Source: Escherichia phage vB_EcoM_MM02
Sequence record: MK373784.1
DNA: 64,000 nt
Reading direction: 5' to 3' (one strand)
Shown in pieces: positions 4,585 through 45,505 of the stretch (its first letter is position 1; each line of letters opens with the position of its first letter). The notes under the pieces are model-generated. The model had not been told where the DNA came from, searched no databases, and saw only the letters and a list, made by a program, of their open reading frames with translations. The translations under genes and the position numbers were made by a program.

Positions 4585-4591
4585 TTAATTT

Positions 4592-4614
4592 GATGTGGTC
4601 ATTATAACCACATC
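4592..4614 (-). promoter_or_regulatory. Inverted repeat enclosing a TTATAAT box (promoter/stem-loop cassette)
   Basis: gatgtgg ... ccacatc arms flank attataa, just upstream of the 4384..4584 ORF. Confidence 0.4.
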
Positions 4615-4626
4615 GTGTTAAAGCGT

Positions 4627-9356: not shown

Positions 9357-9377
9357 AAGTACCTCTTGGCTCAATTC

Positions 9378-9412
9378 ATAGGTCTATTATATCATAATAT
9401 TTAGAGACCTAT
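9378..9412 (-). promoter_or_regulatory. Promoter/stem-loop cassette upstream of 55
   Basis: 8-bp inverted repeat ataggtct/agacctat with a TATAAT in the loop; a TGCTTTA (MotA-box-like) lies just upstream on the minus strand. Confidence 0.4.
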
Positions 9413-9428
9413 CTTAAAGCACGAGATA

Positions 9429-9922: not shown

Positions 9923-10251
9923 TTTACCGCCTTAACAATTTTAAGGTCAACGAATTTTTTCTTACGTTGATTTTTCATACGACGGATAGTCTTTTCAGAG
10001 ATTTCATGTTTCTGATAAGCTTTAGATTCAACACCAAATGCAGCAACGTCAAATTCAGAAAGAATATATTGTACTAGAATTTCACGAATAGAATTACGTC
10101 CAATTTTCTGGTCGTGTTTTTGCATGATTTCATAAAGACGGAATTCCCACGCATCAAGAACTTGAGGAGTAACAACATTGCCAGATTCCAGAAGAGCAAC
10201 AACTTTATCGAAAGCGAAAGAATTAACTACGTTTTTGATTTTAGTAGACAT
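9919..10251 (-). CDS. Hypothetical protein
   Basis: Likely start MSTKIKN at 10251 with GAGGA SD; the upstream extension lies inside the promoter cassette. Confidence 0.4.
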   Translation of the reverse strand: MSTKIKNVVNSFAFDKVVALLESGNVVTPQVLDAWEFRLYEIMQKHDQKIGRNSIREILVQYILSEFDVAAFGVESKAYQKHEISEKTIRRMKNQRKKKFVDLKIVKAVK

Positions 10252-10269
10252 ATTATTTTCCTCGGTTAT

Positions 10270-10318
10270 TTTATTATCCAACGAGAGAATTATACTCATC
10301 TCTCAAGAGTTTGTATAC
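10270..10318 (-). promoter_or_regulatory. Promoter/stem-loop cassette (gagaga/tctctc arms flanking TATAAT)
   Basis: Near-identical to 41098..41147 apart from compensatory stem changes. Confidence 0.5.
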
Positions 10319-10557
10319 TATTTTTTAAGCATGAAAAGTAAGTAATTTGTATCACGTGGAGTAATATCAACACCCATATCAAAGATGCCTTTATAGATTG
10401 GGTATTTGTTTTCTGTTGTATCGAAGCTGAAACTATTTCCATCACAACTAACAGTAATAGCATCTGTTAAAATGTCATACTCAATCCTAACAATTGAATC
10501 ACCAATTTTAACGTCGAGGTGTTTTTTGAATTTGATAAAATCTAATTCTTGGGCCAT
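10318..10557 (-). CDS. Hypothetical protein
   Basis: 79-aa ORF. Confidence 0.4.
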   Translation of the reverse strand: MAQELDFIKFKKHLDVKIGDSIVRIEYDILTDAITVSCDGNSFSFDTTENKYPIYKGIFDMGVDITPRDTNYLLFMLKK

Positions 10558-10620
10558 GATATTTTCCTCATTTTAAGACGATAGGAAGATAATAACATGT
10601 CTTCCTATCGTTGTACATTA

Positions 10621-11509: not shown

Positions 11510-11688
11510 GACTTAATTTCCTTCGCAATTGAACAGAAGATACCACGGTCACAAAGCATTTCACCAATTTCTGGATATTTGATTGAACGGTACCAAACAT
11601 CCAGGCTTGAAACTCTGGTTATCTGTATGGCATTACCATTGACAGAATAGTACTGGTCAACCTTAATTTCTTTATCTTCAATTGTCAT
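11506..11688 (-). CDS. Hypothetical small protein
   Basis: Likely start MTIEDKEIK with GAGGA SD; the upstream extension overlaps a promoter cassette. Confidence 0.35.
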   Translation of the reverse strand: MTIEDKEIKVDQYYSVNGNAIQITRVSSLDVWYRSIKYPEIGEMLCDRGIFCSIAKEIKS

Positions 11689-11854
11689 TTTATTTTCCTC
11701 TATAGTAGATGGTTTAATCTTAACACATCTATTGAGGATGTAAACTGTTTTATGAAAATATTTTTTGATTTGAGAGGGGCACAAGGAGATAGTGAAGTGA
11801 AGATTCCAATGGATTATATTAGAAATGAGATAAAGAAGACCAGGCGGCACCTGG

Positions 11855-15074: not shown

Positions 15075-15886
15075 AATTCTAATTTATCCTTTTGAAATTC
15101 TTCGTCTAAATATGGGTTCCAACCCATTTTAAACCTTTTGATGAAATTATCAATTCTAAATTTCGGTAAGTTTAAATCCGCAAAAATAGATGATTTACTT
15201 TTAAAATCTGGACCTAAATAATCATATAAAATTTCTGCGTATTTTAACCATAATATACAAGTACCGGATTTAATTGCGTTCGGAGTTTTCCAAGGTTTTA
15301 CACCATACATCGGATTTCCACTTCCTTTATGCCTGATAGAAGATGAAATTCCAATTTTAATTTTAGCTTCCTTTGTATGCGAAAATCCACGATGCGGATT
15401 TTCTTTCCAGTATTTTTTAGAAGCTTCTGATATTTTCTTTCTGGCTAAATTAGTATGATGCTTTCCATAAAATCCATTATTTTTGCCTTTATTACGATTT
15501 CTTTTAATCATGGTTATTGATTGCTTTTCTCTAGTTTCTTTAGAAGGAGAAATACCATATGTCGTAAATTTGCCATCAGCATATGCTAAATTAAAATACT
15601 CTTTATTCCATACATCTTTTTCTATATTCTTTTGAAATTCAGCTTCAATGCTAGTTATTTGTTCATCTCCGACTAATTGAAAATATAATATTTCAACTTT
15701 CGGCGTTTCTTTCAATAAGGCTTTTTGAAATTCGGAAGATGACGAAGACGAATAATAAAATTTACCATTTTTATCAATAATATTCGTTCCATCAAAAGTG
15801 CAATTGGTTTTACTTCCAATGTAATAATATGGTGGGGTTTTAGCATTAATTCTATTAATAAATGATAGTTTATATACTACATTCAT
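15065..15886 (-). CDS. Free-standing GIY-YIG homing endonuclease (Seg-like) with NUMOD3-type repeats
   Basis: N-terminal VVYKL...YYYIGSK pattern; two HTxxAKxKIS-like repeats; overlaps both the gene 49 stop and the nrdD start. Confidence 0.6.
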   Translation of the reverse strand: MNVVYKLSFINRINAKTPPYYYIGSKTNCTFDGTNIIDKNGKFYYSSSSSSEFQKALLKETPKVEILYFQLVGDEQITSIEAEFQKNIEKDVWNKEYFNLAYADGKFTTYGISPSKETREKQSITMIKRNRNKGKNNGFYGKHHTNLARKKISEASKKYWKENPHRGFSHTKEAKIKIGISSSIRHKGSGNPMYGVKPWKTPNAIKSGTCILWLKYAEILYDYLGPDFKSKSSIFADLNLPKFRIDNFIKRFKMGWNPYLDEEFQKDKLELCL

Positions 15887-16356: not shown

Positions 16357-16391
16357 GATAAACCCTTACCTTAAATAGATAAGGGTATTTA

Positions 16392-18282: not shown

Positions 18283-18587
18283 TATAATGTTCTCTCAAAT
18301 TTGTGGAAGCATTTACGGCATTTCAATTTCAAGTTATCACTGGTCCAGTTAACCAGTTGGACTTGGATAGTTCCACATTCCGGGCATGGATGTTTTGCTG
18401 CCGATTTGGCAGCATTTTCACGTCGTTCAACCATTTTCATTATTTCGTTCCATGCTGGAGGAACGAACTCTTCTTCACCATGAATTTTATCTCGCTGGAC
18501 AAATTCAATCTTTGAACTATCATCAATAAACTTAACTAAGCCATGATTAGTGCTCATATCAATATCCTCTAGAAGACGTAGGTTCAT
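18282..18587 (-). CDS. Hypothetical zinc-ribbon protein
   Basis: 101 aa; CPECG ... CRKC cysteine pairs. Confidence 0.45.
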   Translation of the reverse strand: MNLRLLEDIDMSTNHGLVKFIDDSSKIEFVQRDKIHGEEEFVPPAWNEIMKMVERRENAAKSAAKHPCPECGTIQVQLVNWTSDNLKLKCRKCFHKFERTL

Positions 18588-19537
18588 TATAACACCTCAA
18601 TGGCATTTCGTAAACCATCCGCTTTCGCGTTCAGAGCTTTTAACGATTTAGTTTGTTCTGCAATCTGGGCTTCGACTTCTTTCAGACGAGATTTGAGATA
18701 TTCGCGTTCTTCTCTTAAGTTATCAACTTTTTCTGCTTTAGGCTCTTTAATAGGCTTAGGCTTATACTCGTTAGGGTTCTTCAACTTAATTTGAATGCGA
18801 GAACTGTATAACATTGAACCATTATCTTCGGTTTCATCATACATTTCTACCACGTCCATGATTCTTAACATCATGCGAAGTTTATAAGACAGCGAACGAA
18901 TGGTTTTATTGTGCTTCTTAATTTCTTCAGCTTTCATGGTGCCGAGATTACGTGAGTAATAATAAGGAACCTGAATATCAATTGATAATGATGCGGTACC
19001 ATTACCGGTTGGTTTGAACACTGCAGTAACCCAATCTTTAGCATGAACTGTATTTGTACGATCATCGCCGCCTGTGAATAATTTACGAGAATGTTTAAAA
19101 AGCATATTCACTTGGTTATTGAATTCACAAGCAAATTTATCAGCAAATTTAGTTTCAGGAATGGTAGTTAACCAATCAGCCAAATGAGTCTTTTTAACAT
19201 CATTAACAATAGTGAATTCAACCAAATCGGTTTTAGATGTCACAGATTTAATAAAGCTCGGCTTCATAAAGTTTTTAATGTTATCGCGAGCTACAGTAGA
19301 AGATAATAAACGAGAACGTTTGAACCATTGAAGCAGTGTCCCTAATGAATGAGAATATGCATTTTGAGTATCTTTACAGATATGATTTTCTTGGCCTATG
19401 TATGTACCAAAATCGCGAAGAATACCACTTACTACATCTCGGTGTGGAACATCAAATCCTAGTACACCAGAAGCACGTTGGGCATGAACGTTAGCGATAA
19501 GACCTGCAAAGTATTCAATGTAATGTGAACGTGTCAT
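18587..19537 (-). CDS. Hypothetical 316-aa protein with C-terminal coiled coil
   Basis: First of three consecutive ~320-aa ORFs each preceded by a promoter cassette. Confidence 0.5.
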   Translation of the reverse strand: MTRSHYIEYFAGLIANVHAQRASGVLGFDVPHRDVVSGILRDFGTYIGQENHICKDTQNAYSHSLGTLLQWFKRSRLLSSTVARDNIKNFMKPSFIKSVTSKTDLVEFTIVNDVKKTHLADWLTTIPETKFADKFACEFNNQVNMLFKHSRKLFTGGDDRTNTVHAKDWVTAVFKPTGNGTASLSIDIQVPYYYSRNLGTMKAEEIKKHNKTIRSLSYKLRMMLRIMDVVEMYDETEDNGSMLYSSRIQIKLKNPNEYKPKPIKEPKAEKVDNLREEREYLKSRLKEVEAQIAEQTKSLKALNAKADGLRNAIEVL

Positions 19538-19565
19538 AATATTTTCCTCTCGTTAAGATAAATTC

Positions 19566-19595
19566 ATTATACTCCAACCATCCTTGGTTGTAAAC
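19566..19595 (-). promoter_or_regulatory. Early-type promoter cassette (GTTTAC, 18-nt spacer with caacca/tggttg IR, TATAAT)
   Basis: 27 of its 30 nt recur at 20586..20612. Confidence 0.5.
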
Positions 19596-19599
19596 TGAT

Positions 19600-20559
19600 T
19601 TATGATTTTAACGCATTCATTGCGTTAAAAAGTTTAGAGTACTGCAACTGGAGCTTGGTAACTACTTGTTGAGCATCACGAAGCTTAGCTTGTGCTTTGT
19701 CAAGTTCAACAGACAGTTGGTCCATAGTGGCCTTGATTTGATTATAATGGTAATCTTCGACCGGAAGAAGGTCATTAGAAACATTTAGTTTTACTGCAGA
19801 CAGTTTGCACACATTTGGCAAACCTTTAAACATTGATTTACCCGAAGTAGAATAAGCACTTAGGACTTCGGCCTGTTCAATTGGGGTTGCAGTAATTGAC
19901 GCTTCGAACGTTGCATTTTCCTTTTTAAGATTTTGATAGTATTCAGAGTCTTTGTGCCACCATGGCGCAGGAACCTTTTTACCAATAGATACACGAGCCT
20001 GGATAGCGATATGGCCCTTATTCTTGATAGTGTTGATAATATTAAGCTCACGAGAATAAATTGCTTTAATCTGGTGGATATTATCACCTAAAACTTCCAA
20101 CGCTTGGTGGAATACACGAGCAACGTTATCATTCTTAGGTTTATACGTAAGAGTGAACTCGTTCTCACTGATAACCATGATTTCTAACTTATCGTAAGTA
20201 TATTTCAAATGTTTCATGTTAATTGCTTGAGGACGAATACGAGAAGCAATGGCCATCAGATTGTTAAGGTTATTCCGGAACTGCTTAGCGAAATATTGTC
20301 CTTCACCGCCAATACAAAAATTACGAAGTTTCTGTTTGGCCAATAAACGGCTGAACTCGCCATTTTTAATGAACTCTTTAACGGGTGTGTTAGTAACGCA
20401 TTCAAATTGAGTAAACTTACGAGAAGTAATACCATAATATGAACAGACTTCCTCAATCTCTTCAGGAGTCTTTACAGGCATACGGATAGGATTAGGTCCT
20501 GGAGTATATGCGTTCGAGGTAAATTCTTTGATAAGTTCTCTACGTGTAATAAAAGCCAT
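19600..20559 (-). CDS. Hypothetical 319-aa protein with C-terminal coiled coil
   Basis: Second of the triplet. Confidence 0.5.
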   Translation of the reverse strand: MAFITRRELIKEFTSNAYTPGPNPIRMPVKTPEEIEEVCSYYGITSRKFTQFECVTNTPVKEFIKNGEFSRLLAKQKLRNFCIGGEGQYFAKQFRNNLNNLMAIASRIRPQAINMKHLKYTYDKLEIMVISENEFTLTYKPKNDNVARVFHQALEVLGDNIHQIKAIYSRELNIINTIKNKGHIAIQARVSIGKKVPAPWWHKDSEYYQNLKKENATFEASITATPIEQAEVLSAYSTSGKSMFKGLPNVCKLSAVKLNVSNDLLPVEDYHYNQIKATMDQLSVELDKAQAKLRDAQQVVTKLQLQYSKLFNAMNALKS

Positions 20560-20585
20560 TTTATATTCCTCATGTTGAAAAATTT

Positions 20586-20612
20586 ATTATACTCCAACCA
20601 TCCTTGGTTGTA
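20586..20612 (-). promoter_or_regulatory. Promoter cassette, duplicate of 19566..19592
   Basis: Identical 27-mer attatactccaaccatccttggttgta. Confidence 0.5.
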
Positions 20613-20614
20613 CA

Positions 20615-21610
20615 TCATTCCTTAAGAAGTTTTACTACTTGAATAAGATTAGCTCGTTCTGTTTTATTTTTACCGTTTAAGCCTGCTAATCGTGAGATTT
20701 CATCGTCAGTCTGTTGAATAGTTACATTAAGTTCGTTAATCAAAGCTTCAAAGTATTTGATTTGCTCGGCATGTTTTGATTCAAATTTCTGAACAGGAAT
20801 AACGTCTTGGTTCAGTTCATCAATAAGGTCTTTAAGAGCATCTTCTTGGTTGATATCATATTCAACTTCTTTTATTTCTTCAACGAGCTCGTCTTTATAT
20901 CTAACGTCTTTTAGTCCTGGTGCTGGTCCTGAAATCTCTTCTTTAAGAGTACAAACATATCCAATACGGTATCCAATGCCGTCTCGCTTGATATCAACTT
21001 CGTCGATAAATCCACAATGTTTAAGTCCAGAGCCGATTATGTCAAAATATCCTTGACGTCGTCCTTCAAACGTTACACGAACTACTAAGACAGTTTTGCC
21101 ACCGACCTTTTGAAGCTCACATTTATAAAAGTTTGTTGAACCTGAATAACATGGATGAGTTTTAAAGTTCATCTGACGATCTAGGCCCATTTGTAAACGT
21201 GCTGTTACGGCCATAAAACGTGTTTGGTTCTCGTTAAGATGAGCAACAATCCATTTCAAAGGCATTTTACCCTGTTCACGGCCGAACAAATCAGTACGTC
21301 CTAGATTACGCAGGATGTTGTTAGAGTTAATCATCGACAGAACGTTAAGTTTATTCAGCGCGCTGAAGATTCCATCAGCCATTGATTTTCCATAACCTTT
21401 ACACGCTTTAATAAGTGCTCGCGGCAGATTAGTATAGATTTCAGACGGCATATGAAAATCAAATTTACTAGTCAGTAATTGATGAACTTGGATAGCAATT
21501 TGCTCATAATTAAGTGCTCTGCGATCGTTATGGTCTTTAAACCATACTTTAATCTGTGAAGCACATAAACCGTTAATTTCATGTTTTACCGCATCAGATG
21601 TAATGCTCAT
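20615..21610 (-). CDS. Hypothetical 331-aa protein with C-terminal coiled coil
   Basis: Third of the triplet. Confidence 0.5.
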   Translation of the reverse strand: MSITSDAVKHEINGLCASQIKVWFKDHNDRRALNYEQIAIQVHQLLTSKFDFHMPSEIYTNLPRALIKACKGYGKSMADGIFSALNKLNVLSMINSNNILRNLGRTDLFGREQGKMPLKWIVAHLNENQTRFMAVTARLQMGLDRQMNFKTHPCYSGSTNFYKCELQKVGGKTVLVVRVTFEGRRQGYFDIIGSGLKHCGFIDEVDIKRDGIGYRIGYVCTLKEEISGPAPGLKDVRYKDELVEEIKEVEYDINQEDALKDLIDELNQDVIPVQKFESKHAEQIKYFEALINELNVTIQQTDDEISRLAGLNGKNKTERANLIQVVKLLKE

Positions 21611-21672: not shown

Positions 21673-22200
21673 TTATGCGTGAACCGTCTTTAAACGTTCT
21701 TCAAATTTCCGAAGAGTACTAATACGTTCTGCTTTCTGTTTTGTATAGTTTGCAATACGTTCTGAAGTGAGAGCGTATCGTTCGTTTACTGATTCTTTCA
21801 TGAAGTCAGGGATTTCACGAGAAGCTTTAATTTCATCAAACTTATCGAGTACTGCCTGGTCTTCAGCGATTAAATTTTCGTACATCTCGATATCTTTCTT
21901 GATAAACTCGATATCTTCCTGGGTTACTTTGGATAAACGAGATGCTTTATCCTTTTTGTACTGCTCGTTAGTTTCACGAGACCAGAATAATGTACGTTTT
22001 TTGTTAGTGTTTTTGTAGACTTCCACAATTCCAACTGAATCGATGATAACAATCCAATTCCAGCGAGATTTGAAAATCTGGCCTCCGTCCACGGTAATCT
22101 CGTTACCATAAGCAATGTCATTAAAGAACTTACTTTGTGCTTCAGATTTAAATTTACCGTCGTTATAATTTACCAGGTTGAAAATATCTTTAGCGTTCAT
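21673..22200 (-). CDS. Hypothetical protein
   Basis: 175-aa ORF. Confidence 0.45.
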   Translation of the reverse strand: MNAKDIFNLVNYNDGKFKSEAQSKFFNDIAYGNEITVDGGQIFKSRWNWIVIIDSVGIVEVYKNTNKKRTLFWSRETNEQYKKDKASRLSKVTQEDIEFIKKDIEMYENLIAEDQAVLDKFDEIKASREIPDFMKESVNERYALTSERIANYTKQKAERISTLRKFEERLKTVHA

Positions 22201-22218
22201 GTTTTACCTCCAGTAGTT

Positions 22219-22256
22219 GATAGGTCTATAATAACATAACCATAGACCTTGTAAAC
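22219..22256 (-). promoter_or_regulatory. Promoter/stem-loop cassette (aggtctat/atagacct arms, GTTTAC -35)
   Basis: IR flanks an ATTAT-rich -10 region; gtaaac on the plus strand at its distal end. Confidence 0.45.
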
Positions 22257-22683: not shown

Positions 22684-23685
22684 TTATTTCAGTAAAGTAA
22701 CTTCCGAGATTTCCTCCCAACCATCTTTATCAGTTGAAATAAAATCTGCTACATAAAGAGCCGTACGTAATGATACATTGCGAAGACGAGATACGTTAGC
22801 CTTCATCCAGGACAATGCTTTATACGTTTCTGCATCAGTCAGACCACGTTTCTGCATCATGTCAGTAGATAATATTACATCTTCAACTCGAACCATAATC
22901 TCTTCATTAGAGTGTACTCCAAGGTCGAGATACACTGAACGAGATACTAAAGCTTGAAGGTGTGGAGCAAGTTTCGAACCCCGTTCTAACTCTTTATCGA
23001 TATCAACGTTTGTAATGAAAACGATAGTACCTTCAAACTCAAATTCTTTATCAATACCCTTATCCTCGAGATAAGATGACGCAGTGCTCCAACAAACTTT
23101 GCGTTTATCTCCGGTGTCTAATGCTGCTTTAAGAAGATTCAAGATGTCCATATCTGAGAATACGTCAACGTCGTCGATTAAGAGAACGCTGTCTGCATCA
23201 CGGTTGAGCCAAAGTTGTTCGTAAAGGCCAATACCAGAGATTTTACCATTAATGCTTTTGTATTTGATGAAACCGTTATCATTAGCATTATTAAGTGCTT
23301 TATCCAGAGAATACGTCTTACCAATACCGGCTGCACCTGAAATAATGAGTGAACGAATTTTGCCATCGATAATGCCATTCGTCATCATGTTCATTACTTT
23401 AAAGCGTTTGTTGATACGAGTTTTCATATCTTCAGTGCTTTCAACAACTGCAACTGGTGATGTCTCAACTCCTTCCATTACGATGTCTGATTTGAAGACC
23501 CATACTCCACGTTCAGAACCATCAATCATAACGAAAATTTTACCATCACCTAAGTGGGAACATTCAGGATTAAGCTTTGCCGGGAACCAGGTCTTTGTGG
23601 CAACATAAGAACCAGAGATTTCGTTATTACGATAGATACCTTTTTTGATTTGAATGTTGAACATTTTATTCTCCAATTTACTCAT
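22684..23685 (-). CDS. Predicted P-loop NTPase (AAA-like)
   Basis: 333 aa; Walker A GAAGIGKT and Walker B VLLIDDVD after a ~110-aa N-terminal domain. Confidence 0.6.
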   Translation of the reverse strand: MSKLENKMFNIQIKKGIYRNNEISGSYVATKTWFPAKLNPECSHLGDGKIFVMIDGSERGVWVFKSDIVMEGVETSPVAVVESTEDMKTRINKRFKVMNMMTNGIIDGKIRSLIISGAAGIGKTYSLDKALNNANDNGFIKYKSINGKISGIGLYEQLWLNRDADSVLLIDDVDVFSDMDILNLLKAALDTGDKRKVCWSTASSYLEDKGIDKEFEFEGTIVFITNVDIDKELERGSKLAPHLQALVSRSVYLDLGVHSNEEIMVRVEDVILSTDMMQKRGLTDAETYKALSWMKANVSRLRNVSLRTALYVADFISTDKDGWEEISEVTLLK

Positions 23686-23782
23686 TTCGTTTCGATAGGT
23701 CTATAGTATCATATCCTAAAAGCATGTACACTACTTTTTAAAAATATTTTAACCCCCTAAAGGGACCCGAAGGTCCCCACAT

Positions 23783-26265: not shown

Positions 26266-26372
26266 TTTACCATACTCGTTTCAATAAGATTCACTATGCC
26301 GTTTACCATGTTATAGGTAAACATCGGATAATTGTATTGTACTACAACATAAGCGATAAGCAAAAGTTTCAT
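26262..26372 (-). CDS. Hypothetical 36-aa hydrophobic peptide
   Basis: MKLLLIAYVVVQYNYP...; sits directly downstream of a promoter cassette. Confidence 0.25.
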   Translation of the reverse strand: MKLLLIAYVVVQYNYPMFTYNMVNGIVNLIETSMVK

Positions 26373-26383
26373 TTTGTTCTCCG

Positions 26384-26433
26384 TTTGTTTTGATAGGACT
26401 ACTATAACATAGTCCTACCAAGATGTAAACTAC
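26384..26433 (-). promoter_or_regulatory. Promoter/stem-loop cassette (GTTTAC, taggacta/tagtccta IR flanking TTATAGT)
   Basis: 50-mer identical to 45091..45140. Confidence 0.55.
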
Positions 26434-26663: not shown

Positions 26664-26823
26664 ACATTTGCAATTCGGTGTGGGCTTCAGCCATCTTTTT
26701 CATAGCTCTGTTAATGTCGATGTCTCCATCTTCGCAACCATGAGCATTTTCCCAATCGGATACAGAATTAGCATACTCTTCAATCAAAAACATCAACTTA
26801 GAAATCTTTTCTTTACGTGTCAT
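26644..26823 (-). CDS. Hypothetical small protein
   Basis: Likely start MTRKEKISKL with GAGGAG SD; the upstream extension lies inside a promoter cassette. Confidence 0.35.
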   Translation of the reverse strand: MTRKEKISKLMFLIEEYANSVSDWENAHGCEDGDIDINRAMKKMAEAHTELQMYVNEIM

Positions 26824-26829
26824 AACGTT

Positions 26830-26879
26830 CTCCTCTAGTAAGTAAGGACTACTATAACACAACCTGAGGAGAAGTAAAC
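26830..26879 (-). promoter_or_regulatory. Promoter cassette with SD-containing inverted repeat (ctcctc/gaggag)
   Basis: GTTTAC at the distal end; the 3' arm of the IR carries the GAGGAG SD of the downstream ORF. Confidence 0.45.
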
Positions 26880-26894
26880 TGATAGATGCCAAAA

Positions 26895-26918
26895 AGCCCC
26901 AACCATAAGGAAGGGGCT
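26895..26918 (-). terminator. Structured terminator-like hairpin (agcccc..ggggct with internal loop) followed by T-run on minus strand
   Basis: Downstream of the rI stop; a near-identical element recurs at 42243..42264. Confidence 0.5.
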
Positions 26919-30016: not shown

Positions 30017-30475
30017 CTAGATTTTAATCACTGCTTTAGAAGCTTTTCCTGGTAGTCGTTTATTGTTAATAATAGCCATTCTGCATTGAAGAGTCTTCAT
30101 TTTGAATGCCGGATTTTCGCGACAAACTGTAAGTCCTAACCAAAGATTTCCGTCAGTTATTTCTAAACGGCCTGGACGATACTCGACACCTTCGACAAAA
30201 TCTTCATCAACATCTGGACGTGCCGGCATTGATAAAAATTCTGCAACTTCTTTAACGTGATTTTTTACTTTATGAAATAATTCAAAAACGTAATTCTCAT
30301 CTATTTCTCTCTGGATGGCACGATCTAAGAGATGTTGAGAATACTTGATATGAAAGCCTGGTAGTCCAAGAGACTTTGCAGCATCTTTTATACCGACATT
30401 TATTTTGCGGAACTCCGTTTCAAAGATTCGACGGAGTTTATTACGGCGGATAAAAACTTCCGAATTGATAGTCAT
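30017..30475 (-). CDS. regB: Endoribonuclease RegB
   Basis: MTINSEVFIRRNKLRR... recognised as T4 RegB; ATG at 30475 with GAGGAG SD. Confidence 0.85.
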   Translation of the reverse strand: MTINSEVFIRRNKLRRIFETEFRKINVGIKDAAKSLGLPGFHIKYSQHLLDRAIQREIDENYVFELFHKVKNHVKEVAEFLSMPARPDVDEDFVEGVEYRPGRLEITDGNLWLGLTVCRENPAFKMKTLQCRMAIINNKRLPGKASKAVIKI

Positions 30476-30483
30476 TTTGATTT

Positions 30484-30532
30484 CTCCTCTAGTTGACAAG
30501 TCTATAGTAACACAACTAGAGGAGAAGTAAAC
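30484..30532 (-). promoter_or_regulatory. Promoter cassette with 12-bp inverted repeat sequestering the regB SD
   Basis: GTTTAC, 17-nt spacer, TACTAT; IR arms ctcctctagttg/caactagaggag; the 3' arm is the regB Shine-Dalgarno. Confidence 0.5.
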
Positions 30533-32560: not shown

Positions 32561-32637
32561 ATGAATTGTCCATTTCTGTATTTACCCCTCCAAGTAATTA
32601 TGAATATACTATCACAATTCTAGGAGAAAGTAAACTG

Positions 32638-32940
32638 TTATTTACCTTTAATTACTTTAGCTGCTTCGATAGCCGCTTGCTGAAGGTCATCCATAGACAT
32701 ACCGAATTTAGAAGCAAAGTTATCAATTTTCTTTTCGACAGCATTCAAAGGCTTGGCCTGTTTACCTTCATTAGCGCCAGGAAGAGCGAGAATACGCTCT
32801 TTGTCAATATAAAGGCTTACAAGTTTCTTACGGTCTTTATCGGACAAATCATGAAATGAATGAGCCTTTTTATTTATAGCGGCTTCTAATTTACCTGCAC
32901 TCACTCGCGCTTCAGTAATAAATTCTTTATATGTTTTCAT
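32638..32940 (-). CDS. Internal (capsid-packaged) protein, IPII/IPIII-like
   Basis: N-terminal MKTYKEFITEA capsid-targeting sequence; T4 ipII/ipIII position next to denV. Confidence 0.65.
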   Translation of the reverse strand: MKTYKEFITEARVSAGKLEAAINKKAHSFHDLSDKDRKKLVSLYIDKERILALPGANEGKQAKPLNAVEKKIDNFASKFGMSMDDLQQAAIEAAKVIKGK

Positions 32941-33004
32941 TTTTTGTTTCCTTGTTTGTTTTGATAGAGTAATTATACCATATTAATACTTAAGCGTAAA
33001 CAAT

Positions 33005-33265
33005 TTAAGCTTTACCGCCAGAAATAATTCCGAAGTTGTTAAAATCGTATCCAATATCGTCAACATCTACTTTAGGATTTACTACAACATAAGCAATTTC
33101 ACTACGTTTTGCATAGGTGTTGATTTCTTTACCATCGCCACCTAAGAAAGAATACCCATTACGTTTTAATGAGCCAAAGTCTTCGGCATCACCAATGAAA
33201 GCTTTAACTTTAAATTTAGGACCTTTGGCATCTGCTTCAACGATAAATTCTTGATACATTTTCAT
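33005..33265 (-). CDS. Internal protein-like (CTS-bearing)
   Basis: N-terminal MKMYQEFIVEA. Confidence 0.55.
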   Translation of the reverse strand: MKMYQEFIVEADAKGPKFKVKAFIGDAEDFGSLKRNGYSFLGGDGKEINTYAKRSEIAYVVVNPKVDVDDIGYDFNNFGIISGGKA

Positions 33266-33271
33266 TTTTCC

Positions 33272-33685
33272 TTAGTAAATTGATTTACCATAGTATTTGT
33301 ACCAAGTCGGACGTTGAGCAATTTTTTCATCTAAGCGTGCTTGACTTATCGCAATGGACGCTTCGGACGGGACGTAATTATTACGAAATTCTACAGGAAT
33401 GTCGGAAATATCCTGGACAGTCGTGTCCTTGATTTTGAAACCACGTTTCAAGCATTCAGCGATTAGCTCGATTTGACGTAAACGTAAAAATTCGAGTTTG
33501 TCGTAAAAGAATGTTACGTGACCTGTGCCTAAGATAAATGTTGGAGAGATTTTAAAATCCTTTACACGTTTACCGTTTTGAACATGTTTACGGACTGCAC
33601 CAAATACGCGTGGTAATTCACGATACTCAGCCATAAGATGTTGGTCGGACAGTTCAGAAACAAGTGTTAAATTGATACGAGTCAT
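33272..33685 (-). CDS. denV: Endonuclease V (pyrimidine-dimer glycosylase) DenV
   Basis: [31 protein letters not shown]... recognised as T4 DenV; 138 aa from ATG at 33685. Confidence 0.9.
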
Positions 33686-33690
33686 AATTT

Positions 33691-33742
33691 CCTCCAAGTA
33701 GTTGATGAATGTATAGTATCAAAACCCTTGGAGGAAGTAAAC
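33691..33742 (-). promoter_or_regulatory. Promoter cassette with inverted repeat sequestering the denV SD
   Basis: GTTTAC, TACTAT-like -10; arms cctccaag/cttggagg, the 3' arm being the denV Shine-Dalgarno. Confidence 0.45.
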
Positions 33743-33743
33743 A

Positions 33744-34025
33744 CTATTTTTCTGAAGCGCCTGAAATATATTTTTCAAGACGTTGTTTCATCAGCGAGCC
33801 GTTCTTAGCGATTTCTTCTGGTTTATCGCACATACGCAACAAGGCTTCAAGCTTAGCGATATCGCTGGTACGTTCAAATTTGCGAGTATCTATCTTACTA
33901 GCAAGTTCAGAAATACGTGCTAATAGACTTTCAGCTTCAACCAAAGCTGCACCTAGCTTAGTTGCAAATGTGTCAGTAGCTTCGTTAAGAATAGATTCTG
34001 ATAAAAATTCACTATATGTTTTCAT
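33744..34025 (-). CDS. Internal protein-like (CTS-bearing)
   Basis: Starts [11 protein letters not shown]; its ATG overlaps the e stop (ATGA). Confidence 0.5.
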
Positions 34026-34510
34026 ATATACGCTTTCCAAGTTCCTGTTTTAAATGTTGAGATTACGCGTTTCGCGCGATTAGGTGTCTGACGATACCAT
34101 TTAGATTGGGCTAGATTTACTGCCGCTTCATCCCAACGTTTCTGTTGAAGCATACGAAGAGAATTAGTAAAACCGGCGACGCCTGATACACCCATTTGGA
34201 AGACCATATTGACCAATGCACACCGACGAACCGCATCTAAAGAATCATATACCGGTTTAAGTTTAGCATTACCCAAGATTCCGCGAACGGCTTTATCAAC
34301 GTCTTCATTAAATAGCTTTTCAGCCTCATCAAGGGTAATTGTACCGTTGCATTTACGTCCGATCATTCTGTCAAGTTCAGCTTTAGCTACGGCTAAAGAC
34401 GGGGTCTTTGTTACTAAATGGCCTATGCCAATAGTCCAAAAGCCTTCGGTGTCTTTGTATAAAGTCAGTCTAAGACCTTCGTCATTACGAAGCATTTCAA
34501 ATATATTCAT
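34022..34510 (-). CDS. e: Lysozyme (endolysin) e
   Basis: [31 protein letters not shown]... recognised as T4 lysozyme; 162 aa from ATG at 34510. Confidence 0.9.
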
Positions 34511-34512
34511 AA

Positions 34513-34536
34513 TACCTCCCACGTTTATAGGAGGTA
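34513..34536 (-). promoter_or_regulatory. Hairpin sequestering the lysozyme SD with late-promoter-like TATAAAC in the loop
   Basis: Minus-strand TACCTCC-TATAAACGT-GGGAGGTA immediately before the ATG; matches the transcript-specific translational control described for T4 gene e. Confidence 0.55.
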
Positions 34537-34544
34537 TTTATTAC

Positions 34545-36404: not shown

Positions 36405-36710
36405 TTATTTTCCTCGACATTCTTTAATGAAATTTTCTAGATTGGTAGATTCAATAGCTTTTTTACGAGCTTCTGCATGTTCTTCTTCAGACAATTTACA
36501 TTTATAATTAACCCAGACATTATGGTCGAAACTAGTCGTGGCATATAATAACAATGCTCCAACGAATAGCAAAAACGGCGATAAGAATACAAAACCAGGA
36601 ACACCATCCATACTGTAAGCCTTTTGTAATACTGCAACAGAAAGAGCTGCGTAAAAAAGTGATACAAATATTGTTAAAAGACCAATTCGGTTGGTTTCGC
36701 CTAATTTCAT
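36405..36710 (-). CDS. Hypothetical membrane protein, C-terminal FIKECR motif
   Basis: 101 aa; two TM helices; ends ...ENFIKECRGK. Confidence 0.45.
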   Translation of the reverse strand: MKLGETNRIGLLTIFVSLFYAALSVAVLQKAYSMDGVPGFVFLSPFLLFVGALLLYATTSFDHNVWVNYKCKLSEEEHAEARKKAIESTNLENFIKECRGK

Positions 36711-36768
36711 AATATTCTCCTCATGTTTTAATAGGACTACTATAACATAGTCCTATCAGTTTGTACAC

Positions 36769-36987
36769 TTATTTTGACATTTCTTCGATGTCACGACGAT
36801 ACCCATCACGAACTTCACGAAGAGCTTCAAGGCCACACATAGGCTCGATACCAGTAATGTGAACTTGATTAATCTGATACTCTACATCTTCTAACTGAGC
36901 GAAAACATAACGACGTTCTGCTGCACAACCAGGTTTAGCTTTACCGAAACGTTTATTCAAAGTAGTCATTTTTATATCTCCATTCAC
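36769..36987 (-). CDS. Hypothetical protein
   Basis: 72-aa ORF. Confidence 0.4.
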   Translation of the reverse strand: MNGDIKMTTLNKRFGKAKPGCAAERRYVFAQLEDVEYQINQVHITGIEPMCGLEALREVRDGYRRDIEEMSK

Positions 36988-37049
36988 TCATTTGTTTTGA
37001 TAGGTCTATAGTATCAACAACTACAGACCTTGTAAACTGTTTTGCGAAA

Positions 37050-38034: not shown

Positions 38035-38286
38035 TTAAATTTCACGACATGCGATATTATATTCATCCCAGAGGTCATCATGTGAAGCCTCTACCAATGG
38101 AACGATTGTACCGTTTATGTCTTCATTATAAGGGCAAATTGTACAGTGCGCATCTTCGAATCGGATGCCTTTGTGTTCAGATTTTTTATAACGCATATCG
38201 AATATCTTTGCAAACTTTTCACGAGTAATGGTTTTACCAACCACTTTGGTTCCTATACTTTCGTAATAAATCATTGTGGACTCCAT
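38035..38286 (-). CDS. Hypothetical protein
   Basis: 83-aa ORF. Confidence 0.4.
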   Translation of the reverse strand: MESTMIYYESIGTKVVGKTITREKFAKIFDMRYKKSEHKGIRFEDAHCTICPYNEDINGTIVPLVEASHDDLWDEYNIACREI

Positions 38287-38336
38287 TTGTTTTGATAGGA
38301 CTACTATAACATAGCCCTATCTTGTTGTAAACTGTT

Positions 38337-39131: not shown

Positions 39132-39487
39132 TTTCTACATTCCTTAATAAAGTTTTCGATTGTTTCATTTTCACGTCTAGCTAGGAGTTCATTATAACTA
39201 ATCATTTGAGAAGCGTAAACCTTTTTATTTTTCTTGTTGTGGTTTATAAAATCGTAGTAAAAATAGACTATAGTACAAAATGATGCGATGGATGCAAAGG
39301 CTTGGGTATACCGTAAGTCCTGCCATTGGTCTGTGAATCCACCAGTGTTCCCTATAAATCCTAACACAACGCCGTCAATAAGAAATCCAACTAATCCAAA
39401 GGCAAATCCCATGCCAATACTCATAATAAAAATTAGAATGTTCTCACCAAGAGAAGGCCATACGGTTAAGAGTTGAGGCTTTTGCAT
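39128..39487 (-). CDS. Hypothetical membrane protein, C-terminal FIKECR motif
   Basis: 119 aa; about 3 TM helices; ends ...ENFIKECRK. Confidence 0.45.
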   Translation of the reverse strand: MQKPQLLTVWPSLGENILIFIMSIGMGFAFGLVGFLIDGVVLGFIGNTGGFTDQWQDLRYTQAFASIASFCTIVYFYYDFINHNKKNKKVYASQMISYNELLARRENETIENFIKECRK

Positions 39488-40481: not shown

Positions 40482-41075
40482 TTATTTCAAAGAGTTAATA
40501 TATTCTTGTACATCAGCAGAAGTGGTTTCGACGCCGGCTGGAGTGCCATTGAACGTTTCAACACGAGTCAGAGTGTCTTCGATATCAACCTTAGTCAGTG
40601 CAGCTATTTCAATTACATCATCGGCCGTAGAGATACCAAGGGCATTGGCTGCTCGAGTTTCACGAATGTATTCGAGTTTGATTGCCAGGTTCTGACGAGC
40701 ATCGTCAAGTTCAACCACCTTACGAGCAATTTCAATTCGCATAGCGGCGTACCCGTCAGCTTTTGTATTAAGTTGTTCGGCAGTTCGACGATACAGAAGA
40801 CCAAGCTTAGCATGCATAGTAACATCTTGTCCTTCAGCCAGGAGCTTACGAATTTCACGTTCCTTAGAAGCGGCTTGCTTGTTCTTTTCATTAACAAGTT
40901 CGCGAATACGTTTTTCTTCATTAATAGATTTAACAGAAGCCGTTTTTAGTTCTTTGATTTGGGTAATCAACTTATCTGCAGCTGCGTTATACTGTTCTTC
41001 GACAGTCAGATTTTTAGCCATAGCAGTATCCAGTTTAGTGCGAATGAATTCAACAAGTTTCTTCAGTGTGTTCAT
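40482..41075 (-). CDS. Hypothetical coiled-coil protein
   Basis: Likely start [10 protein letters not shown] with AAAGG SD; predicted all-helical. Confidence 0.45.
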
Positions 41076-41097
41076 ATTATTACCTTTCAATTGGTGG

Positions 41098-41147
41098 TTT
41101 ATTATCCAACGAGAGCATTATACTCTGCTCTCAAGAGTTTGTAAATT
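41098..41147 (-). promoter_or_regulatory. Promoter/stem-loop cassette (gagagc/gctctc arms flanking TATAAT)
   Basis: Near-copy of 10270..10318 with compensatory stem substitutions. Confidence 0.5.
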
Positions 41148-41373
41148 ATTTTTTAATCAAATTGACATAAAACTTGGCGTCTTCGGGGTGCATGCCTTCG
41201 CAGTATTCTTCAACCATGAACTTCTTAACAGCTTCATAAGGACCACTCAGATTAAGCTCAGTTGTCCAGAACTTGGAATCTTGGACTGAATCGATACGAA
41301 CTTCAGGGTGGCGGTTGCGAATAACTTCTTCTGTGTATTCATAATCAACGACATCAATACTAACTTTAGCCAT
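41146..41373 (-). CDS. Hypothetical protein
   Basis: 75-aa ORF. Confidence 0.4.
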   Translation of the reverse strand: MAKVSIDVVDYEYTEEVIRNRHPEVRIDSVQDSKFWTTELNLSGPYEAVKKFMVEEYCEGMHPEDAKFYVNLIKK

Positions 41374-41419
41374 TTTGTTTTCCTCTTGATTTGATAGGAC
41401 TACTATAACATAAACTTAC

Positions 41420-41584
41420 TTAGATGTAAATTATTTCAACGTCACCTTTAGCTGCTTTATAACCTTCAGCCCAAGATACAACAGAGTTTTTATCCGAGGA
41501 TTCAAATTCAGGCATTGGACTTTCACCAATATTCACACAGTATGTTTCTTCATTTTCATCGAACCAAATAATTAAAGTAGTCAT
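41420..41584 (-). CDS. Hypothetical small protein
   Basis: Likely start MTTLIIWFDE with GAGGAG SD. Confidence 0.3.
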   Translation of the reverse strand: MTTLIIWFDENEETYCVNIGESPMPEFESSDKNSVVSWAEGYKAAKGDVEIIYI

Positions 41585-41643
41585 TTTGTTTACTCCTCTG
41601 TAGTTGATAAGTCTATAGTACCACCATCCTTGGCGTTTGTACA

Positions 41644-42147
41644 TCATTTATTTTTAATTTTGCAAATTTTTTCTGCTTCAGCAATTGCAGCGTCAATGAT
41701 GCTTTGTGCAATTTTATTACTAGTTGACCTGGCAATCACACTAAGAACAATTTCTTTTTCTTCACCACCCCAACCCCAAGTCCTTTGTTCGTGGGTACCT
41801 TTAACTACAGCTGAAACTTCAACAGAACGTCCACCATCAGAAGTTTTAACATCTACAACCCAATCACCATCTTTCTCTTCTACCCTTGATTTATCCCAAG
41901 AAATACTAATATATGATTCGCCGTCAATAGAAGTCGCCGGGTTTTTCTCTACCGTAAGACCTTCACTTTCCAGCCATTCAATAGTATTTGCGCATAAATC
42001 AGAAGAACACCTCATCGGAAACCGGCAAGATTTTTCACCTTTAGATGCTGCATCGTACATCTTTTCCAAAATACGCTTTTGCACGTTTTTAAAAATAGTT
42101 TCAGCAGATTCTTCAGATTTTTTATTCAGTTCAGTGTAAAGACTCAT
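41644..42147 (-). CDS. Hypothetical protein
   Basis: 167-aa ORF. Confidence 0.45.
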   Translation of the reverse strand: MSLYTELNKKSEESAETIFKNVQKRILEKMYDAASKGEKSCRFPMRCSSDLCANTIEWLESEGLTVEKNPATSIDGESYISISWDKSRVEEKDGDWVVDVKTSDGGRSVEVSAVVKGTHEQRTWGWGGEEKEIVLSVIARSTSNKIAQSIIDAAIAEAEKICKIKNK

Positions 42148-42242
42148 AACATTTTCCTCTATGGTTGATAAGTCTATAGTATCATGTCCTTAGAAGAAGT
42201 AAACATCTTTATGAAATATTTTTATGCCCTAGATACCAAAAG

Positions 42243-42264
42243 GCCCCAACCATAAGGAAGGGGC
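42243..42264 (-). terminator. Structured terminator-like hairpin (gcccc..ggggc with internal loop)
   Basis: Downstream of the 42271..42735 stop; same element as 26895..26918. Confidence 0.45.
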
Positions 42265-42735: not shown

Positions 42736-42781
42736 GTTGCTTTTCCTAAGTTAATTAACTTATCTATTTATTATGCCAAAA

Positions 42782-42805
42782 AGCCCCGACCTTTCGGAAG
42801 GGGCT
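42782..42805 (-). terminator. Structured terminator-like hairpin (agcccc..ggggct) followed by T-run on minus strand
   Basis: Third copy of the architecture; lies between the tRNA region and the downstream ORF. Confidence 0.45.
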
Positions 42806-43116
42806 AAGCCTTGCGGCAACCTTGTCGGGGTTCCACCTGCTAAGGCAAGTGTTTGTACGAAACGCCGGGATTCGAACCCGGTTATTAAGCAGTTGACGCT
42901 ACTCAATATTTTTAAAAGGCCATATCTCGACCATATCCGAACGTTCCGTCAAAAACGCTACTCGGCTTACGGCAAAGATATTTCCTCGAATCGATAATTC
43001 GGTGCGCCGTTTCTGCTGTGATGTAAGGGGATATTAACAAATCGTAAAGATTTATTAAGACCAGTCCTTACTCAGGGAACATCAGTCCGACGACTTGCCG
43101 GTAGCGACCCGGCTTC

Positions 43117-44884: not shown

Positions 44885-45091
44885 TTACTCACCTTTTGCA
44901 ATTTTATCCATAACAATAGCGATTAAACCGATTAGAAATGCTACTACCAATGAGATAGAATTTTCAGTTGTTGTCAGTAGTCCGCAAATGAATCCTACAA
45001 ACATCGAAAAACTAAAAGCCATTGAAGCAATTACTACAGCAACATTACGAATCAGTTCAGCGCGTTTCATTTTATTTCTCCATTTACTCAT
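44885..45091 (-). CDS. Hypothetical small membrane protein
   Basis: 68 aa; two hydrophobic helices. Confidence 0.35.
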   Translation of the reverse strand: MSKWRNKMKRAELIRNVAVVIASMAFSFSMFVGFICGLLTTTENSISLVVAFLIGLIAIVMDKIAKGE

Positions 45092-45140
45092 TTGTTTTGA
45101 TAGGACTACTATAACATAGTCCTACCAAGATGTAAACTAC
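45091..45140 (-). promoter_or_regulatory. Promoter/stem-loop cassette, identical 50-mer to 26384..26433
   Basis: tttgttttgataggactactataacatagtcctaccaagatgtaaactac. Confidence 0.55.
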
Positions 45141-45428
45141 TTACAGAAGAGTTTTTGCAATAATTTTAAGCTGAGCTACAGAAATATGCTTAGCTTTAAA
45201 CAGTGCAGTCTCTTCGGCCGGAGAGATAACAATAGTAGCGCCGTCTTTCTTAGCAGACCATCCATCCCCTAAGTAAACAGTACCTTTTACTTCTTCGCCG
45301 TCAACCAGACTAATCATTGGTTTACCCTCACGTCCTTTATTTGCTTTAATAACTTCGGAAGTAAGGGTTGCTTCGGTCAGAGTAGAAACGTTAGCAACAG
45401 GTGATATAAATTCTTTATAGGTTTTCAT
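45141..45428 (-). CDS. Internal protein-like (CTS-bearing), T4 ipI position
   Basis: N-terminal MKTYKEFISP; upstream of 57B as ipI is in T4. Confidence 0.5.
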   Translation of the reverse strand: MKTYKEFISPVANVSTLTEATLTSEVIKANKGREGKPMISLVDGEEVKGTVYLGDGWSAKKDGATIVISPAEETALFKAKHISVAQLKIIAKTLL

Positions 45429-45505
45429 TTTATTTCCTTGAGGTTGTTTATTTGATAGGATGATAGTAACACACCATCATCCTTATGTAAACTGTTTTGT
45501 GAAAA

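Follow-up and report, generated by a model that had tools for sequence, protein, structure and literature searches.

Promoter/stem-loop cassettes of the PeSL kind in the early region of the RB69-like Escherichia phage vB_EcoM_MM02

The window analysed in this study, a stretch of 64,000 nucleotides (nt) from Escherichia phage vB_EcoM_MM02 (sequence record MK373784.1), carries on its minus strand a recurrent intergenic cassette of about 60-70 nt, in which a promoter, an inverted repeat and the translation start of the next gene are packed together. It is likely that these cassettes are T4-type early (host sigma70) promoters of an RB69-like Mosigvirus, that they are promoter-early stem-loop (PeSL)-type elements with RNA hairpins, and that they serve as recombination points. 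A sequence-only reading of the window had listed 19 such sites and had likened them to the PeSLs of some T4-type phages. Every testable feature fits that identification, namely a compact repeated unit of promoter, stem-loop, Shine-Dalgarno sequence (SD) and ATG in an early, hyperplastic block. The cassettes belong to this already known kind, and the PeSL picture is extended here to the RB69 (Mosigvirus) group, with clean natural cases of cassette-mediated gene gain, loss and swap. What this work adds is evidence for selection on the stems at the level of the sense-strand RNA, together with a conserved subset that would mask the SD and a copy in another phage family.

The repeated early promoters

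The window has a G+C content of 37.3 % and matches Mosigvirus (RB69-like) genomes at 96-99 % identity (NicPhage 98.8 %, JK45 98.2 %, APCEc01 and RB69 about 96 %). As read from annotated relatives, a minus-strand early region spans approximately 1.9-49 kb and is followed by plus-strand baseplate genes; the gene order of the early region is 46/47, 55, nrdG/D, 49, nrdC cluster, tk, vs, regB, denV, internal proteins, e, tRNAs, 57, 1, 3, 2 and 4.

Two of the cassettes share an exact 50-mer. Positions 26384-26433 and 45091-45140 agree at 50 of 50 nt, the identity stops at both ends and the copies lie 18,707 nt apart. On the minus strand the 50-mer reads GTAGTTTACATCTTGGTAGGACTATGTTATAGTAGTCCTATCAAAACAAA, or in segments GTAGTTTAC-ATCTTGGTAGGACTATGT-TATAGT-AGTCCTATCAAAACAAA, with GTTTAC as the -35 box, an 18-nt spacer, TATAGT as the -10 box and an inverted repeat whose arms, (G)GTAGGACTA and TAGTCCTA(TC), bracket the -10 box. 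It is 100 % identical to RB69 57629-57678, within the predicted early promoter Pe:57689, and its family occurs in 204 phage records at one to five places each. Gene conversion was considered for the exact identity and found to be unneeded: the two JK45 copies differ by one base, so a single substitution suffices and no special event is required. The second exact repeat that had been reported, between 19566-19592 and 20586-20612, holds at 27 of 27 nt, and self-comparison of the window places the sites in repeat families of five to seven copies each.

A strict scan of both strands for GTTTAC-N16-18-TATAAT gave 21 minus-strand and five plus-strand matches, with 5.2 +/- 2.8 in dinucleotide shuffles as the null. 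A generic sigma70 scan was of no help in DNA so rich in AT, as it found 76 sites where 66.5 +/- 9 were expected. Reading of every minus-strand intergenic gap, together with a relaxed scan, gave 26 early-type cassettes. These occupy minus-strand positions from 10.2 to 45.5 kb, and the late block at 49-64 kb is free of them. Each of the 19 sites listed from the sequence alone holds a promoter-like module in a minus-strand intergenic gap. The GTTTAC-like -35 box claimed for all of them stands at 17 and has to be given up at 4592 and 9378, where a MotA-box-like (T/C)GCTTTA is found instead. Of the claimed inverted repeats, the one at 41390 is degenerate, and those at 10270 and 41600 form weak hairpins. 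Variant -35 boxes are ATGTAC (20586 and 41600), GTGTAC (36731), GTATAC (10270) and ATTTAC (41098 and 41390). Cassettes beyond the original list are those at 10618, 11043, 11745, 17068, 18615, 23731, 32635, 33001 and 39220, and amongst these 11043, 17068, 18615 and 39220 are within coding sequence and less certain. The segments 18586-18615 and 39191-39220, both putative promoters, match GTTTAC-N18-TATAAT perfectly within coding sequence, and their -10 boxes overlap an ATG (TATAATGAAC); in p000v and LF82-41 a deletion ends at the 39220 site.

The order of parts within a cassette is constant: stop codon of the upstream gene, A-rich stretch, GTTTAC, spacer of 17-18 nt, TG-n-TAnnnT, start region CCTATCAA, leader of about 20 nt, GGAG-type SD and ATG. 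The stop codon abuts or overlaps the -35 box (TAGTTTAC, TAAGTGTAC, TGATGTAC), the A fraction upstream of the promoters is 0.47 against a background of 0.32, and most cassettes have either 27-28 or 37-38 nt between the -10 box and the ATG. As a consensus, aaAataGTTTACa ... TGtTAtaATa.aCcTATcaaa was obtained. In RB69, 58 early promoters had been predicted by Nolan et al. 2006 (PMC1524935); of the 26 Pe sites that lie in RB69 42.5-77.2 kb, 21 are the same sites as curated cassettes. Their work relied on promoter scoring only, and inverted repeats or stem-loops at the promoters are unmentioned in it.

Gene exchange at the cassettes

The window was compared with JK45, p000v, NicPhage, LF82-41 and RB69 (about 95-99 % identical). 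The module shuffling that had been proposed for PeSLs is borne out, as indels and replacements relative to these five close relatives end at or within cassettes. Between 10.4 and 49 kb, 16 distinct events separate the window from JK45, p000v, NicPhage and LF82-41; the insertion of a homing endonuclease or an intron explains four or five of them (at 14536, 15016-15881, 43480 and 48492). Indel boundaries fall in a cassette +/- 7 nt in 13 of 32 cases (p = 3e-9 with the whole region as the null, and p = 0.0012 when the null is restricted to intergenic DNA).

Individual cases show how genes are gained and lost. In p000v, the 969-bp gene between the two 27-mer cassettes is gone and a hybrid promoter is left at 19592/20562, with a 53-nt overlap. 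Both p000v and RB69 are without 36769-37029 (261 bp), and the junction lies at both -35 boxes (36768/37030). NicPhage and LF82-41 have a single hybrid cassette for the window's cassettes at 41431 and 41644 (41410/41578, 45-48 nt). An extra 258-bp open reading frame (ORF) of the internal-protein (IP) type stands in JK45 and NicPhage between two copies of the 45137 cassette (45065-45139), and RB69 has two more cassette-flanked insertions, at 23660-23724 and 45406-45460. Several genes have different upstream cassettes in different relatives, and identity often collapses exactly at the 5' edge of the -35 box. Comparison with the relatives shows that the cassette homology serves gene exchange: near-identical cassettes of 40-75 nt provide the homologous recombination machinery of the phage, at the DNA level, with the homology for deleting, duplicating, inserting and swapping the small genes that lie between them.

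The same picture is known from internal-protein loci. Arbiol et al. 2010 (PMC2839356) cite the work of Repoila et al. 1994, which covered only IP loci of T-even phages and described conserved promoter/hairpin flanks there. Similarly, IP-type genes of the window are bounded by cassettes and are swapped or inserted at 32.5-33.3 kb and 45.1-45.5 kb. Genes of this type are the commonest to be replaced or inserted among the relatives; 45141-45428 encodes IPI (PF11634). A four-copy repeat is found at the starts of IP-type genes (MKTYKEFI... leader), at 32918-32943, 33243-33268, 34003-34028 and 45406-45431.

A near-perfect copy of a cassette of class A (defined below) occurs in Escherichia phage W70 of the Vequintavirinae (OP778610, 40474-40606: ...GTATACAAGTTGATAGGACTATGTTATAGTAGTCCTATCAAAACAAATGAGGAGAACAAAATG). 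Its neighbours there have relatives in phi92-/phAPEC8-like phages, not in T4-likes, and the match to more than 260 T4-like genomes is limited to the cassette of about 90 nt. This copy provides good support for the transfer of the cassette by itself from one phage family to another, and it suggests that regulatory cassettes may move on their own. Phage A6-6 (148 kb) was considered as another cross-family case and rejected, since its flank is homologous to the window gene 36769-36969 and the phage is hence T4-like.

The PeSLs of RB49 and phi1 (Arbiol et al. 2010, PMC2839356) resemble the present cassettes in being repeated intergenic modules that reach from the upstream stop codon to the SD and ATG of the next gene, in lying in hyperplastic regions upstream of small ORFs, and in the position of indels, which on comparison of closely related genomes terminate within the elements, the crossovers falling between the -10 box and the SD. 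They differ in the -35 box, which is TTGACA in RB49/phi1 and GTTTAC (T4 type) here. For RB49/phi1, experiments demonstrated terminator activity and mini-circles, whereas the cassettes of the window are known from sequence alone. Comeau et al. 2014 (PMC4122927) described PeSLs and PmSLs in PST/T4 and nt-1/KVP40 with the same T-even consensus, TTTACW N17 TAYWAT; as here, the elements lie beside indels and in internal-protein loci, and middle-promoter versions exist. RB69-type phages are outside the analysis of Comeau et al. ('RB69' occurs 0 times).

Hairpins and their proposed role

The segment from the -35 box to the ATG was folded with RNAfold for the 26 cassettes, with 150 62-mers of the same strand as controls. 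The cassette hairpins are beyond chance, with a mean z-score (z) of -2.2 (t-test p = 4e-6) against -0.39 in the controls (Mann-Whitney p = 3e-6). A z below -2 is reached by 14 of 26 cassettes (54 %) and by 8 % of controls, and a z below -3 by 38 % and 2.7 % respectively; about six of the 26 cassettes are without a significant hairpin. A scan at the Rfam gathering thresholds returned two tRNAs only and no RNA family at the cassettes. Three layouts can be distinguished. In class A, a stem of 7-13 bp (6 bp at 10318) lies around or over the -10 box and ends at the predicted +1. In class B, which makes up about a quarter of the cassettes, one arm (..CTCC..) directly follows the -35 box on its 3' side, and its pairing partner is the SD farther downstream (..GGAG..). 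In class C, a short hairpin with an AGGA loop is contained in the spacer.

Several observations concern the level at which these stems act. Sense folds are stabler than antisense folds (Wilcoxon p = 0.007), the difference being -2.0 kcal/mol against -0.65 kcal/mol in controls. In the best stems of the window and T4 pooled, non-Watson-Crick positions are G.T in nine cases and A.C in two, and arm sequences vary widely among cassettes and among orthologues. The G.T excess, the stability of the sense folds and the variety of the arms together point to a structure in sense RNA and not to a palindromic protein site or a cruciform. Nevertheless, the inverted repeats could act as DNA, either as operators for a dimeric early-shut-off protein or as cruciform or hairpin targets of recombination proteins or nucleases, and some features would suit such a role. 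The mechanism of T4 early-promoter shut-off is not fully known, arms lie around the -10 box, the expected point of action of a repressor, Arbiol et al. 2010 (PMC2839356) speculated on a stem-binding recombination protein, and breakpoints cluster at the cassettes. However, the arms (TAGGACTA, AGGTCTAT, GAGAGCA, GGATGATGG, CAACCA, CTCC...) are widely different, which argues against one sequence-specific binder, and an operator half-site common to all sites and symmetric on both strands was not seen across cassettes and orthologues. The sense-strand mismatches are of the G.T kind, for which the other arm of a cruciform would have A.C, and class B arms are 17-30 nt apart. Many breakpoints, moreover, lie at the 5' edge of the -35 box, outside the stem, and the junctions resemble plain homologous crossovers. 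We regard a role as DNA as quite improbable.

Termination was the original PeSL function, and the stems could accordingly be terminators or attenuators, so that each cassette would be transcriptionally isolated from upstream. When Arbiol et al. 2010 (PMC2839356) placed a stem-loop of an RB49/phi1 PeSL between promoter and lacZ, expression fell to an extent similar to that caused by rrnB T1, although the drop in lacZ cannot separate termination from SD masking or RNA processing. The stems of the window are placed exactly between cistrons, and three cassettes are preceded by true, separate terminators, one of which is a three-copy repeat. However, the embedded stems themselves are AT-rich or mixed, of 6-14 bp, and without terminator features, whereas those of RB49/phi1 have GGGG...CCCC. 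A GC-rich stem with a U-run is absent from class A, B and C stems, which are followed by CAAAACAAA-type sequence instead; because there is no U-run, the promoter-overlapping stems are not intrinsic-terminator-like. A terminator scan of 22-42 kb called none of the promoter-embedded stems, although it did find separate GC-rich terminators. The intrinsic terminator signature is present only in separate hairpins, at 26883-26917, 42230-42264, 42770-42804, about 23750, about 29100 and about 40460. Class B stems, finally, contain the SD, and translational control fits them better. Termination or attenuation by the stems is hence unlikely in our view.

The behaviour of the stems in diverged lineages was followed at regB. 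Its loci from viral contigs represent five lineages of 98-56 % protein identity, all with a stem that buries the GGAG (folding free energy, dG, -14 to -23; z -2.4 to -6.2), and the GGAG is paired in the minimum-free-energy fold of 10 of 11 leaders. A similar pairing of the GGAG is predicted at denV and in the cassettes at 26879, 42204 and 32635. The inner halves of the regB stem differ between lineages (TCTAGTTG/CAACTAGA, TCTTGACTG/CAGTTAAGA, TCTTTATG/CATAAAGA and TGTAAG/CTTACA), and one further lineage has TTTCCTT/AAGGAGA around an inner GGGCCAT/ATGGCCC stem. For covariation, an ungapped, structure-leaning alignment of nine sequences from the five lineages was anchored at SD and anti-SD; it replaced RNAalifold on a plain MAFFT alignment, which recovered the SD/anti-SD core only and left the arms out of register. 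Both sides had changed in six of 14 pairs (15 cells), with 3.3 +/- 1.0 in shuffles (1 of 500 reached the value) and 0-2 in slid controls; paired cells amounted to 80 % against 47-54 %.

Other loci show comparable behaviour. The denV stem, TTCCTCCAAG/CTTGGAGGAA here, is TCTCCTGTAG/CTACAGGAGA at the same place in T4. The trna.4 gene keeps a class A stem with arms that are very different between orthologues (GGTAGGACTA and GATAGGGTAGTG). At nrdC.8, the layout is class A here and class B (SD-masking) in T4-type phages and in a third lineage, and the layouts therefore interconvert. According to the sequence-only reading, T4 itself is not known to have such inverted repeats at its early promoters. 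This is contradicted both by Comeau et al. 2014 (PMC4122927), where PeSLs are listed for PST/T4, and by the same scan on T4, which was done over 30-78 kb with the promoter rule of the present analysis (AF158101 carries no promoter features). The scan found 19 promoters with a mean z of -2.0 and the same hairpin classes, with hairpins at ipI, ipII, ipIII, regB, denV, nrdC.8 and in the mobD region. Relative to T4, stems are kept with different sequence at denV, ipI and nrdC.4/5. In the legend of Comeau et al. 2014 the PST stems are just upstream of the promoter, whereas many of those here and in our T4 scan lie around the -10 box or reach the SD; their stem motif AGNA-loop-TCNT fits the AGGA...TCCT arms of the window.

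Since the z-scores are far beyond the controls and stems are kept with different sequence in diverged lineages, the hairpins are under selection, as RNA. It could be argued that the stems are functionless by-products of cassette duplication and of an AT-rich promoter consensus, the repeats being merely similar strong promoters. About six cassettes work, on paper, without a stem, and paralogy accounts for part of the recurrence of the arms. The distance of the z-scores from the controls, the two-sided changes that keep stems between lineages at the same locus and the T4 stems of different sequence at orthologous sites all stand against this explanation, and we consider it very improbable indeed.

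The geometry of the cassettes suggests how selected RNA hairpins could work. In most stem-bearing cassettes the predicted transcription start would lie inside the stem or at its 3' edge, and with such a start the hairpin is possible only in read-through RNA from an upstream promoter; judging from the predicted start sites, RNA from the cassette's own promoter would be unable to form it. At regB, the loop contains the -10 box, with the predicted start about 7 nt farther on, and the own-promoter leader folds with dG = 0 in every lineage. The hairpins thus most likely act as RNA in read-through transcripts. In class B, the SD would be masked in read-through RNA and the leader of promoter-proximal RNA would be free, and the GGAG of the read-through RNA would presumably be shielded from RegB. 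In classes A and C, the SD would be left free, and the most likely role of the stem, as we infer it, is that of an insulator between neighbouring cistrons, either as a 3'-end-stabilising barrier for the upstream message or as a pause site or attenuator.

Class B may be viewed as the early-promoter counterpart of a set of late-promoter hairpins. In the leaders of T4 e, 49, soc and I-TevI (PMC3014915), the SD is held in a helix of long transcripts, and a promoter within the helix gives rise to a shorter RNA without the 5' arm, which is translated. Class B cassettes have the same architecture, with predicted pairing of the SD and the promoter inside the helix. The T4 genes have a late (gp55, TATAAATA) promoter and delayed expression, whereas class B has an early sigma70 promoter, GTTTAC-N17/18-TAnnnT, which would limit translation to immediate-early, promoter-proximal RNA. 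By its predicted structure class B works like this family, of which it is strictly not a member. The SD-masking subset also sets the present cassettes apart from RB49/phi1 PeSLs. Neither translation nor SD masking is discussed in the PeSL papers (PMC2839356, PMC4122927), and no description of an early-promoter version of SD masking was found in the searched literature, older subscription literature being beyond reach.

Taken jointly, these elements permit a broader proposal, which we put forward only tentatively. The hairpins may be 'origin-of-transcript' switches and not terminators, a design kept by compensatory evolution in T-even lineages, with toggling layouts and a cassette that is mobile across families. 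Under this proposal, regB, denV and several other genes would be translated, and their GGAG exposed to RegB, only from their own early-promoter RNA, and would be strictly immediate-early at the protein level. Toggling between the SD-masking and the -10-flanking layout would take place through recombination within the cassette, which would be a free-moving unit from Straboviridae to the Vequintavirinae phage W70.

A number of points weigh against the interpretation developed so far. Every functional statement for this phage is a prediction. With about six of 26 cassettes stemless, a stem is not obligatory for promoter function, and since paralogous cassettes are not independent the z-score statistics are somewhat inflated. 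The greater stability of sense folds is also seen, more weakly, in the control segments. The regB alignment is small (nine sequences from five lineages) and anchored, and translation would in any case keep the SD half of the stem constant. The weakest step concerns what the class A and C stems do, as they are without U-runs and the protection of 3' ends is inferred. Finally, cassettes make up 41 % of the short intergenic DNA, and part of their link with breakpoints is that viable indels end between genes.

If SD masking is true, many T-even early genes would be translated only from the transcripts of their own promoters. This would give a sharper view of early and delayed-early timing and of control by RegB. 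It would also affect the engineering of therapy-relevant phages, as a gene put between cassettes would inherit their logic.

Individual cassettes and neighbouring features

All cassettes and modules described in this section are on the minus strand. Class A includes the 50-mer site itself (26370..26430), with the -35 box GTTTAC at 26430-26425, the -10 box TATAGT and arms at 26409-26421 and 26390-26402 (dG -18.3, z -4.8); its 3' part holds the leader, GGAG and the ATG of a 36-aa ORF. The cassette upstream of the trna.4-like gene (45068..45137) has the same core as 26384-26433 (dG -20.0, z -5.0). The arms at 38272..38332 are GATAGGGCTA and TAGTCCTATC, with one sense-strand G.U pair (z -3.2). The cassette at 36708..36768, with a GTGTAC -35 box (z -3.8), forms the left junction of the 261-bp segment absent in p000v and RB69, and that at 36967..37037, of a TACTAT subtype with arms AGGTCTGTAGT and ACTATAGACCT (z -3.6), forms the right junction of this deletion. 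Further members stand upstream of nrdC.8 (22198..22256, z -2.1) and upstream of IPI (45426..45492, z -3.6), the latter with a 3' arm that overlaps the -10 box. At 10555..10618, an ATGTAC -35 box is combined with a stem of 12-13 bp, ACGATAGGAAGA/TCTTCCTATCGT (z -4.3). The cassette at 41073..41146 (z -2.7) shows 90 % identity over 62 nt to its paralogue at 10249..10318 (family D8), which has a weak 6-bp stem (z -0.5). A degenerate copy of class A at 41371..41431 has a mutated 5' arm and no hairpin (z -0.3).

Among class B cassettes, the one upstream of regB (30473..30532) has a perfect stem of 14 bp, TTCTCCTCTAGTTG/CAACTAGAGGAGAA, which joins the spacer with the SD (dG -21.6, z -5.4), and the predicted transcription start is in the loop. 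The SD-masking stem TTCCTCCAAG/CTTGGAGGAA upstream of denV lies at 33683..33742 (z -4.6). The stem at 26821..26879 is TTCTCCTC/GAGGAGAA, and an intrinsic terminator precedes the cassette. At 42145..42204, the stem is TTCTTCTA/TAGAGGAA with one G.U pair (z -1.9), a copy of the terminator repeat precedes the cassette, and a replacement boundary lies beside it at 42210. Two sites counted with this class are class B-like: 32574..32635 in the internal-protein locus (dG -20.0, z -4.0), with replacement boundaries at 32563 and 32587, and 11686..11745 upstream of 55.6, where CCTC/GAGG pairing surrounds an inner stem (z -2.8).

Class C comprises the two 27-mer copies, 19535..19595, which has the spacer hairpin CAACCA-AGGA-TGGTTG and was a crossover partner in the 969-bp deletion of p000v, and 20557..20615. 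A class C-like cassette at 41585..41644, counted with them, has the weak stem CGCCA-AGGA-TGGTG and was the crossover partner of the 41431 cassette in NicPhage and LF82-41. Adjacent genes of about 320 aa at 19600-20559 and 20615-21610 (nrdC.5/nrdC.6-like, the first with DUF7235) each stand behind a class C cassette, and the first of them was lost in p000v via cassette-cassette recombination. A GC-rich hairpin (ATGGGACTTCGGTCCCAT) at 1190-1262 is directly upstream of GGAGTATAAT, without a recognisable -35 box, and its -10 side is common to the 19566 and 20586 cassettes (repeat family D10).

Early promoters without a significant hairpin are those at 32938..33001 (z -0.5), with a replacement boundary at 33003, and at 23662..23731. 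The latter is preceded by a terminator, shares its leader with the 36990 and 45091 cassettes (D19) and is duplicated around an extra ORF in RB69. Modules with a MotA box (middle type) number four, at 4592, 9378, about 21640 and about 46960. The first two look like MotA-type middle promoters, a 'PmSL' analogue: at 4585..4626, a CGCTTTA box and TATAAT are combined with a stem of 8-10 bp around the -10 box (z -5.2), and at 9357..9428 a TGCTTTA box is combined with the arms ATAGGTCT and AGACCTAT around the -10 box (z -4.1). Two leaders of known type, counterparts of the classical T4 cases named above, were also seen. That of gene 49 (16357..16391) has a late-promoter-like TAATAAATA and a hairpin over the ribosome-binding site (z -4.1), and that of gene e (34511..34544) has TAATAAATA and, as read from the sequence, ACCTCC...GGAGGT masking the SD.

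The intrinsic terminator repeat upstream of the 26879 cassette (26883..26917) consists of GCCCCTTCC..GGGGC followed by a T-run (family D6), with other copies at 42230-42264 and 42770-42804. Two of the three copies of this repeat (GCCCC..GGGGC and T-run) are just upstream of early cassettes, and relatives have other sequence in place of the 560-bp segment delimited by those at 42230 and 42770. Nearby, 42736-43116 is a non-coding stretch of 381 nt beside tRNA-Arg(tct) and tRNA-Met(cat), with a tRNA-like T-arm (GGTTCGAATCCCGGC) and no Rfam match, which may correspond to the small RNAs rnaC/rnaD of T4. A segment of 866 bp (15016-15881), located between nrdD and gene 49, is absent in all five relatives. 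It encodes, in an ORF at 15065-15886 (minus strand), a protein of 273 aa, which is probably a free-standing homing endonuclease because it contains a NUMOD3 motif. JK45 carries instead, at window position 14536, an insert of 1047 bp that contains an I-TevII-type gene.

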